The notes: a model not told the origin generated them from the letters alone. A stretch of DNA of 64,000 bases from Vulcanimicrobiota bacterium (GCA_963833095.1 CAWHWQ010000005.1:512001-576000), one strand, 5' to 3'; counted from the first letter of the stretch, positions 57,299 to 59,149 are shown. A program made the numbers and translations.

Positions 57299-57976
57299 TC
57301 AACGCGCCGAGGGGCACGTCCGTCGCAGCAAGCAGGCTCCGCAAAGCGGGTTGGTTCGTTTGCACAGCTCCCGGCCGTGGGCTCGCAGAACGGCATAGGC
57401 GTCGACCGCCAAGGGGCCTATAATCGCCGCCTGGGTTAGAGCGGCGACGCCCGCGCGATAGGCCGCCGCATAAGGCTGGCCGCCCTGCACGACGTGGAGG
57501 CGTTCGAGCACCCGCAGTCCGTTGGAATCCAGCGCCGGCGCCTCCGAGAACCCGCAAAGCAGTAGCACCTTGTCGGCGCCAGGGTCAGCGATCCCCGGAA
57601 ATCGTTTGAGCAGGGTTCGTCGCGGCTTTTCCGCGAGCGCGGCCAGAGCCCCGGCCAGGTTGCCGCCGGCGTATGCCGCGGTATGCTCCGCGCAGGCGAG
57701 CACCTTGGCGGCTCGATGGGACGGCTGCATCCCGCCATCGCGAATCGCCGCCTCGATCTTTTTTGCTCCCGCACCGATCAATGTTGCGGGCGTGATGCCT
57801 ACGGCCGTTCGCAGGCGCTCGAAGGTTTGGGCGCGCCGCTGGTCATCCACGAGATACGCGCAGTTCTCCCAGACGATCAGTTCAAACGGCTCGGTCGGCT
57901 CGGGCAATTCGACGGTGCCATACTGCGTGCGCAGGGCGTCGATGATCGCTCCCGGTTGACCGGGGACGGGCTTCAT
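57299..57976 (-). CDS. HhH-GPD/endonuclease III-like glycosylase
   Basis: PFELIVW, FPGIADPGA, ALDSN, C-terminal CKRTNPLCGACLLRRTC Fe-S motif; start inferred at MKPVP. Confidence 0.75.
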   Translation of the reverse strand: MKPVPGQPGAIIDALRTQYGTVELPEPTEPFELIVWENCAYLVDDQRRAQTFERLRTAVGITPATLIGAGAKKIEAAIRDGGMQPSHRAAKVLACAEHTAAYAGGNLAGALAALAEKPRRTLLKRFPGIADPGADKVLLLCGFSEAPALDSNGLRVLERLHVVQGGQPYAAAYRAGVAALTQAAIIGPLAVDAYAVLRAHGRELCKRTNPLCGACLLRRTCPSAR

Positions 57977-57991
57977 GCTATCGTCGGGTCC

Positions 57992-58075
57992 ATGTCCAAT
58001 CTGCACATTATGTGTCACATGTGCCCCGTCCCGGCGCCCGATCGGCGTAGGTTGGCTTCTCGCATCTCGAAATAG
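57992..58075 (+). CDS. Putative leaderless leader peptide MSNLHIMCHMCPVPAPDRRRLASRISK
   Basis: TG-C-TATCGT (57976-57984) ends 7 nt before the ATG; MCHMC cluster; overlaps the antiterminator. Confidence 0.6.
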   Translation: MSNLHIMCHMCPVPAPDRRRLASRISK

Positions 58076-58135
58076 CGCGACACGAATTTCGATGAACGAA
58101 GCCCTCCGCCGATCCGGCGGAGGGCTTCTTGCTTT
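58040..58135 (+). promoter_or_regulatory. Terminator/antiterminator attenuator upstream of ssuA
   Basis: Terminator GAAGCCCTCCGCCG-ATC-CGGCGGAGGGCTTC-TTGCTTT (58098-58135); 58040-58059 is complementary to its 5' arm. Confidence 0.75.
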
Positions 58136-58159
58136 CCCATCTCACCAGGAGGCACGCCA

Positions 58160-59149
58160 ATGTATCCCACCCGACGCGAGGCAATCGGCCTTGCTACCGC
58201 CGCACTCGCCACCCTCGCCCTTCCGGGGCGCGTGCGCGCAGCGGATAAACTCGACGCAATCACCGTCGACTACGCCTACTACAATCCGGTCAGCCTGATC
58301 CTCAAGCAAAATGGCTGGCTCGAACGCGCACTGGCAGCTAACGGCACCACGGTATCGTGGGTGCTCTCCCTCGGCTCGAATAAGGCCAATCAATTTCTTG
58401 CTTCGGGTTCGGCGCAATTTGCGTCAACGGCGGGAAGCGCAGCGCTGCTTGCGCGCGCCAACGGCGTCCCGCTGCACACTGTCTTTCTCTATTCCCAACC
58501 CGAGTGGACGGCGATCGTCGTCGGCAAGGACTCGAAGCTCTCGAACCTGCGCGACCTCAGAGGCAAGAAGATCGCCGCGACCCGCGGCACCGATCCATGG
58601 TTTTTCTTGCTGCGCTCGCTCGCATCGGTCGGCCTTACCTCGAACGACGTGCAGATCGTTGAACTCCAGCATCCCGACGGACGCGTTGCACTCGAGCGCG
58701 GGCAAGTCGATGCGTGGGCCGGGCTCGATCCGCACATGGCCGCATCGCAACTCGACGCCGGGTCGCGGCTCCTCTATCGCAACATCGCCTGGAACACCTA
58801 CGGTGCGCTCAACGTGCGCGAAGATTTTCTGGCGGCACATCCAGACGTCGTGCGCATCGTGCTGCGCGCCTACGAGCTCGGGCACACATATGCCAAAGCG
58901 CACCCGGCGGAGACCGCGAAGATTCTTGCCGACGCTTCAAACCTTGATCTCAAGGTCGCAAATCTCGTCATCGACGACCGTACGCGGTTCCCGGATCCGG
59001 TTCCGGGAAAAGCCTACATCGACTCCGTTGGCGGGACGATTCCCGTGATTCGCTCCGAGCAACTCGTCGCCGACGTCGGTTCGGTGCAAACCGCGCTCGG
59101 TTCGCTCGCCGATCCTGCGCCTGCGCGCGTCGCACTGGCGCATGCGTAA
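58160..59149 (+). CDS. ssuA: Aliphatic sulfonate ABC transporter substrate-binding protein
   Basis: Tat-like TRREAI signal, DYAYYNP, SLGSNKA, GKKIAATRGTDP, DAWAGLDP. Confidence 0.88.
   Translation: MYPTRREAIGLATAALATLALPGRVRAADKLDAITVDYAYYNPVSLILKQNGWLERALAANGTTVSWVLSLGSNKANQFLASGSAQFASTAGSAALLARANGVPLHTVFLYSQPEWTAIVVGKDSKLSNLRDLRGKKIAATRGTDPWFFLLRSLASVGLTSNDVQIVELQHPDGRVALERGQVDAWAGLDPHMAASQLDAGSRLLYRNIAWNTYGALNVREDFLAAHPDVVRIVLRAYELGHTYAKAHPAETAKILADASNLDLKVANLVIDDRTRFPDPVPGKAYIDSVGGTIPVIRSEQLVADVGSVQTALGSLADPAPARVALAHA

Follow-up and report, generated by a model that had tools for sequence, protein, structure and literature searches.

A probable ribosome-coupled attenuator with a putatively leaderless Cys/Met leader ORF ahead of an SsuA-type importer in Vulcanimicrobiota

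Locus and leader

The window, i.e., the whole stretch of 64,000 nucleotides from a Vulcanimicrobiota bacterium (GCA_963833095.1, CAWHWQ010000005.1:512001-576000) that was analysed, contains three transporter genes preceded by a short leader, and the features of both are collected in Table 1. The first gene encodes a binding protein of the SsuA family, with 2x26 as the best solved relative (E 6.7e-18). A sequence-only reading of the stretch had called the importer a sulfonate transporter; this stands for the family of the binding protein, but the word 'sulfonate' derives from one family match, and a search of 18 genus genomes, 11 of which are at least 90% complete, gave no SsuD (TIGR03565), nor is one encoded beside the transporter. 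Since, moreover, a sulfite/nitrite reductase domain is present in 2 of the 18 genus genomes searched (G000-G017) and TauD was not found in the window's genome (81% complete), gene content makes alkanesulfonate a doubtful substrate, and our guess would be thiosulfate or another reduced sulfur compound.

Table 1. Features of the leader and the transporter operon (positions counted from the first letter of the window).
Feature	Positions	Strand	Remarks
-35 hexamer TTGACC	57956..57961	+	predicted promoter; 17-nt spacing to -10
Extended -10 TG-C-TATCGT	57976..57984	+	7 nt upstream of leader ATG
Leader ORF, 27 codons	57992..58075	+	ATG start, stop 58073-58075; putative leaderless start
Regulatory codons Met7-Cys8-His9-Met10-Cys11	58010..58024	+	codons 7-11
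Weak predicted protector hairpin	58034..58048	+	family's conserved register on last Cys codons partly broken here
Antiterminator strand	58035..58059 (core 58040-58047)	+	predicted partner 58098-58119
Inner stem across stop codon	58067..58092	+	arms 58067-58073/58086-58092; predicted to join antiterminator strands
Intrinsic-terminator-like hairpin and T-rich tail	58098..58135	+	14 pairs, about -30.5 kcal/mol
Conserved 23-nt motif	58131..58153	+	predicted bulged hairpin, conserved 10-nt loop; covers AGGAGG 58147-58152
SsuA-family ABC substrate-binding protein, 329 aa	58160..59149	+	TIGR01728 199.7 bits, cut-off 163.5
SsuC/TauC-like permease, 250 aa	59142..59894	+	below equivalog cut-offs
SsuB-like ATPase, 238 aa	59891..60607	+	below equivalog cut-offs; last gene, then convergent gene

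The same reading had placed an extended -10 seven nucleotides before ATG 57992, a 27-aa ORF with an M-C-H-M-C cluster, an inner TCGAAAT/ATTTCGA stem, a 14-bp terminator-like stem and the AGGAGG ribosome-binding site of ssuA, and each of these elements lies where it was placed, the 14-pair stem spanning 58098-58128. The -35 hexamer is an addition, and its TTGAC- is present in 27 of the 28 non-redundant homologous leaders, a set chosen by promoter score. Between 57000 and 59000 the promoter is the sole promoter-like site (shuffles give 0.5 ± 0.7). The ORF translates as MSNLHIMCHMCPVPAPDRRRLASRISK. With 7 nt from -10 to ATG, its transcript would begin at the start codon, a 5' end predicted from the promoter; none of the 28 leaders has a Shine-Dalgarno-like word ahead of the start, their gap from -10 to start is 7-11 nt, and their start codons are ATG in 16 and GTG in 12. 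The terminator tail had been described as short. Its T run is interrupted. If the tail is taken to begin where the GC stem ends, it comprises TTCTTGCTTT (58126-58135); T runs are longer in several congeners.

On the minus strand, 57299-57975 holds a divergent DNA-glycosylase-like gene with weak profile matches; its probable start codon shares nucleotides with the extended -10, and the -35 of the leader promoter falls within its first codons. Five congeners with a different divergent neighbour still keep -10, ORF and hairpins. Rfam returned no family, be it a SAM riboswitch, a T-box or another leader, for 57800-58300 at E up to 10, where chance hairpin matches stayed far below gathering scores, and none for six related loci at E up to 1; SAM-I (RF00162) was not found in 41 related genomes, with the best 70 candidates scored per genome. 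A single scan for terminator-like sites is weak on its own (3 sites vs 1.9 ± 1.2 in shuffles). It is the conservation of the elements and a positive blind scan of the genome, rather than any single scan, which argue that the attenuator exceeds chance.

A family of leaders

SsuA homologues were collected and the best promoter-supported short ORF was taken at each locus, Cys content not being used in the choice; four loci identical between two homologue searches were counted once, L152 and L324 were left out of all counts, and G069 and G082 support none of the claims. Close homologues of the window's SsuA come mostly from Eremiobacterota or Vulcanimicrobiota records. An ORF followed by a terminator is present at all 17 same-genus loci (window included), at 26 of 31 other close loci (58-68% identity) and at none of 39 remote loci. 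The five close loci lacking the pair are L018, L021, L042, L068 and L070. About 110 nt upstream of its ssuA, L018 carries a promoter, an ORF-less leader and a T-tailed hairpin in place of the Cys leader; this leader has no Rfam match and is possibly another regulatory RNA.

Aligning the upstream regions of relatives, as had been proposed, revealed that Cys/Met clusters are kept while the peptides diverge. Inside the genus, Met7, Cys8, Met10 and Cys11 are invariant in 16 of 16 aligned copies, with His9 replaced by Gln in some; the peptides of other genera are dissimilar (e.g., MLSQAMMSSCMSMCCTSRCR at L019 and MTALMCCCCCIMCLPTGAGAALH at L052) and keep Cys, and usually Met. Overall, the 28 non-redundant ssuA leaders contain 15.9% Cys and 10.7% Met, and both Cys codons are in use (TGC 55, TGT 45). 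The window ORF has no consecutive Cys codons (C-H-M-C), whereas 21 of the 28 relatives, counted by eye, do. This pattern of change bears on the notion that the TG/CA-rich cluster serves a DNA-binding sulfur regulator as a palindromic operator, with the Cys/Met codons as a by-product. The segment 58003-58024 is indeed near-palindromic in the window, but synonymous TGC/TGT exchange and the change of His to Gln break the palindrome while Cys and Met stay, distant leaders do not have it, and an operator would leave the terminator and its complement unexplained; we thus regard this notion as barely credible.

For the blind genome scan, a promoter, a short ORF, a terminator and a downstream gene were required in this order. 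Six matches with a downstream gene were obtained in the window's genome, five of them with a strong -35, while six null genomes give 0-1 of the latter; it is only this strong -35 subset that discriminates, since under the loose setting 9 real matches face 5-9 in the null. All five strong -35 leaders match the operon that they precede: thr, ilv, proC, hom-metY and ssuA. A looser promoter scan (31 matches) added nothing credible, and among 64 matches of a promoter-free scan the hom leader alone was convincing; the window ORF was missed there because it sits in a long open frame.

The sister leaders are as follows: (i) a poly-Thr leaderless leader (G000:C4:207052, L311) before a PALP enzyme gene and thrB (thrC-thrB), and (ii) a Leu/Val/Ile leader on the minus strand (G000:C5:455693, L310) before a gene which, from its N-terminus, we take to be ilvB-like, both with terminator and modelled antiterminator; (iii) a Pro-rich leaderless leader with terminator on the minus strand (G000:C5:336719; L309, L312) before proC, such a leader and terminator being present at 6 of 23 proC loci examined, with 23.5% Pro; and (iv) a leaderless Met/Cys/Thr/Ile leader with terminator (G000:C4:209260; L031, L130) before hom-metY, the metY of this genome being split by an apparent frameshift. 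Other sulfur operons had been suggested as places to look for similar leaders; apart from the one before hom-metY, no Cys/Met leader was found at the other sulfur genes of the genome (PALP, Cys/Met-lyase, PAPS-reductase-domain and luciferase-like matches).

Hom leaders were found at 19 of 29 hom loci examined and contain 8.3% Cys and 16.9% Met, a reversal of the ratio in ssuA leaders. One of them, L204 from a metagenome, combines a Thr run with Met and Cys, which fits the shared role of the enzyme in Thr and Met synthesis. Two cysH-type leaders (L170 and L171) have Cys and no internal Met, and the gene at L170 opens a sulfate-assimilation operon. In the cysH-type genes of L170 and L171, from about position 1525, no ATG, GTG or TTG follows the Shine-Dalgarno sequence with normal spacing; their start codon is likely ATC.

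Alternative RNA structures

Leader segment 58040-58059 had been noted as nearly fully complementary to the 5' arm and loop of the terminator (58098-58114). The two form 16 pairs at -23.1 kcal/mol, better than all 200 dinucleotide shuffles of the leader segment (z -4.2), and the predicted antiterminator is four pairs longer than noted (58035-58038 with 58116-58119). In both the ssuA and hom sets, complementarity to the terminator arm, calculated in sliding 18-nt windows, is absent over the Cys codons themselves and highest 15 nt downstream, counted from the start of the last Cys codon, with a mean gain over shuffles of 4.9 (ssuA) and 5.5 (hom) kcal/mol. If the footprint of a stalled ribosome is assumed to extend +12 to +15 nt, this peak falls just beyond such a ribosome. 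Leaders also pair better with their own terminator than foreign leaders do, 51 (ssuA) and 0 (hom) of 10000 permutations doing as well, although these values are overstated since kin are not independent.

Such a fixed distance between the last Cys codon and its complementary strand is hard to reconcile with the idea that the ORF gives rise to a metal-binding CxxC peptide or a small RNA, with the hairpin as an unregulated terminator. Inside the genus, the C-x-x-C and a flanking His are retained as one would wish for a metal site, but between genera the Cys spacing and the remaining peptide vary freely, and codon content follows the downstream pathway in five operons, so that we judge this idea highly improbable.

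Folding of both states agrees with the proposal that a stall at the Cys/Met codons frees the antiterminator strand. In the model, a ribosome placed on the last Cys leads to capture of the terminator arm (P>0.5) at 26 of 28 loci, and this number drops to 8 of 28 when the ribosome is five codons further and to 5 of 28 when it is at the stop. For the window, arm capture stays at 0.83 as far as codon 13, drops to 0.34 by codon 15 and is 0.00 with the ribosome on codon 17; it partly returns at codons 22-24 (0.54-0.59). The complementary proposal, that a translating ribosome masks the strand, agrees with the model for passage over codons 15-21 but not for a ribosome resting on the stop codon, because the strand lies 14-33 nt ahead of that codon.

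At equilibrium, the terminator is favoured in most modelled stalled states (mean 0.76), so that control would be largely kinetic. RNAalifold applied to 19 leaders predicts the terminator and, over the last Cys codons, a protector; two-sided changes occur in these structures, six of them at one pair. In the family, the core of the antiterminator strand is predicted to be free at 0.19 in naked RNA vs 0.42-0.48 in stalled states; in the window the protector is weak and the strand about half free (~0.5) with or without ribosome. Covarying stems had been suggested as a check, and the outcome is divided. An anchored test passes for ssuA, with 66 Watson-Crick pairs vs 55.7 ± 3.7 (42 of 10000; 22 of 28 loci anchored), but fails for hom leaders (17 vs 24.8), where the anchor may be misplaced. 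Individually significant antiterminators (z<-2) are seen in only 2 of 26 non-genus loci.

As for the signal, the sequence-only reading had proposed dual sensing of Cys and Met. Its Cys part is supported by the model, in which P(terminator) for the window is 0.07 with a stall at Cys11, the sole stall where the antiterminator wins at equilibrium, vs 0.68 at Met10 and 0.89 at Met7. The same values can be read as favouring an attenuator that senses Cys codons only, with Met codons incidental or kept for RNA structure; one ssuA leader (L046) without internal Met, and likewise the two cysH leaders, are in line with this. Yet internal Met occurs in 27 of 28 ssuA leaders and the two Met codons of the cluster are invariant in the genus; of the 67 internal Met codons, 62 precede the last Cys, in positions from which a stalled ribosome would leave the strand free, and the Met share is higher ahead of a methionine operon (hom). 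Provided that attenuation operates, we therefore consider sensing of Met fairly probable, if likely less firm than that of Cys as far as the models go, and exclusive sensing of Cys doubtful.

A motif at the ribosome-binding site

The terminator tail runs into a 23-nt motif, GCYTTCCCNTCKCANNNGGAGGC. Among SsuA loci, 16 of the 17 from the genus and 26 of the 31 further close ones have this motif, while all 39 remote ones lack it. It is likewise found in 15 of 19 hom leaders, and in none of 23 proC loci; the genus's own hom copy (L130, L131) does not have it. Of 201 phylum genomes, 76 contain a match, almost all of them a single one, and a reversed control gives none. Among 119 metagenome matches, 80 could be classed (ssuA 33, hom 43, cysH 3, Cys/Met lyase 1); of the 39 left over, 7 have a Cys/Met leader, and the majority of the others resemble chance matches in coding DNA. 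The bulged hairpin with its 10-nt loop fits 35 of 38 copies. Its outer pair changes from C-G (15) to U-A (4). Named copies are those of the window, L162, L170, L171, L202, L226, L243 and L244, for which there is no Rfam match.

Terminator and motif are separated by anything from 1 to 24 nt, and at L202, L243 and L244, as well as at L162, the motif is intact without leader and terminator and abuts the promoter. Together, these two findings make it likely, from comparison of loci, that the motif is under selection on its own. Conservation of the loop suggests a ligand or a protein; a dull alternative is shared descent of a good initiation region. It is tempting to speculate about tandem RNA control, in which the leaderless Cys/Met attenuator would be followed by a minimal translational switch, the 23-nt motif, gating the Shine-Dalgarno sequence upon binding of a sulfur metabolite (SAM, homocysteine) or a sulfur-pathway protein. 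We consider this unlikely as it stands; were it true, it would constitute a new riboswitch-like class that has taken over the role of the missing S-box. The 23-nt motif, compact as it is, can be put forward as a candidate sulfur-linked RNA element of a new kind.

A hairpin over the Shine-Dalgarno sequence, together with the interrupted T tail and the translational mode published for the mycobacterial Cys system, might also indicate that the leader senses Cys/Met with a main output that is translational (by Shine-Dalgarno occlusion, as for Ms5788A) or Rho-dependent, the hairpin terminating weakly. However, the predicted accessibility of the Shine-Dalgarno sequence is equal in both states over the 28 ssuA loci (0.17 vs 0.18), at no ssuA locus does the ON state gain more than 0.2, and the 5' part of the motif pairs with the leader no better than shuffles do (0 of 27 with z<-2). 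Weak termination, in turn, sits poorly with 4-8 T within 9 nt past the stem in all 28 leaders, a count for which at least 4 T was a search criterion. An output of this kind hence appears quite improbable. In the models the motif does not switch with the attenuator, and Cys tract/Shine-Dalgarno pairing of the Ms5788A type is absent from the predicted fold of the window leader. A dual-layer switch, with a freed terminator 3' arm opening the Shine-Dalgarno hairpin, was considered and rejected as a general feature: the window shows a weak rise from 0.18 to 0.35, whereas the family values are those given above.

Discussion

Taken together, our models and comparisons make it likely that the leader is a ribosome-coupled transcription attenuator, in which a predicted leaderless 27-codon ORF would gauge how much charged tRNA-Cys, and probably charged tRNA-Met, is available and relay this to a terminator before the SsuA-type importer. 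Transcription would start at or beside A57992, and a ribosome would load directly on the leaderless ORF. With sulfur amino acids plentiful, the ribosome would cross codons 15-21, strip 58035-58059 and occupy the inner stem, upon which hairpin 58098-58128 would form and RNA polymerase would stop at about 58135. A stall at codons 7-11 would instead leave the RNA from about 58035 free, and the freed strand would pair with the emerging 5' arm and loop of the terminator, allowing transcription into the three transporter genes. Judging from the modelled states, the switch would be largely kinetic. Such leaders are found in soil bacteria, where a stalled ribosome would likely turn on the importer once sulfur amino acids become scarce. 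The Cys/Met leader thereby flags an orphan SsuA-type transporter as a putative sulfur importer, the substrate of which may not be alkanesulfonate. Furthermore, the tuned Cys:Met ratio (Cys-heavy for ssuA and cysH, Met-heavy for hom) makes multivalent sensing directly testable.

If confirmed, attenuation by terminator and antiterminator would extend to Cys and Met, and would work from a leaderless mRNA, in a phylum whose regulation is not described in the literature covered. A literature search, thin on subscription journals, yielded no report of attenuation at Met codons and, among the papers listed, nothing on a Cys leader with an intrinsic terminator or on ssuA with attenuation, and no attenuator or riboswitch for the phylum; the literature covered gives a translational mechanism alone for Cys, and no Met case. 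Further Cys leaders may be predicted by Lyubetsky et al. (2014).

A closely related system is the 'Cys ribulon' of mycobacteria, whose leaderless poly-Cys sORF attenuators, including that of Ms0113/Ms0114, were described by Canestrari et al. (10.1101/834739); Ms0113 is named as the taurine permease TauC in 10.1101/660928. As predicted here, a leaderless Cys ORF precedes a sulfur operon, among them the taurine ABC importer of Mycobacterium smegmatis. The sequence-only reading did not know of such an attenuator for ssu operons. This has to be narrowed, since a leaderless Cys ORF with sulfonate/taurine import is already published for M. smegmatis; an intrinsic terminator and Met codons were not found in print. 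The mycobacterial ORFs, as far as described there, have consecutive Cys codons, while that of the window has none and includes Met, in a different phylum. Ms5788A was shown to act on translation and not by termination, the mechanism at other loci being left open in the text of 10.1101/834739; the available text of a 2026 paper (PMC13236596) still calls the Cys system translational, and terminators go unmentioned in that of PMC13096801.

In Actinobacteria, Seliverstov et al. (2005, PMC1262725) predicted cys leaders with runs of Cys codons and without conserved terminator hairpins, and, in the sections available, reported no conserved RNA element ahead of methionine operons. A short Cys-codon ORF before a sulfur operon is shared with the window, which differs by its predicted terminator. 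Conversely, the 'ABC-leader' of Naville and Gautheret (2010, PMC2965389), a predicted premature terminator with antiterminator in an alkanesulfonate transporter operon of bacilli, shares the terminator before a sulfonate-type ABC operon, while its main text assigns neither leader peptide nor signal. The SAM-I (S-box) riboswitch also controls sulfur genes by termination according to methionine status, and has no Rfam match here.

Classical attenuators of the trpL, hisL, thrL and ilvL type are well established. Their scheme is outlined in the legend of Fig. 1A of 10.1101/834739, and the leader of the window resembles it in (i) a short ORF with a surplus of codons for the amino acids of the pathway downstream, (ii) a predicted intrinsic terminator with T tail between leader and first gene, (iii) a modelled antiterminator which covers the 5' arm of the terminator, excludes it and lies just beyond the stalled ribosome, and (iv) a protector predicted in the family consensus. 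It departs from the scheme in its Cys/Met cognate, its apparently leaderless start, an importer as target, a weak protector in the genus and a Shine-Dalgarno hairpin downstream. As judged by sequence comparison, what is new relative to known attenuators is the amino acid, the putative leaderless start and the phylum; otherwise this leader appears to work like a classical attenuator.
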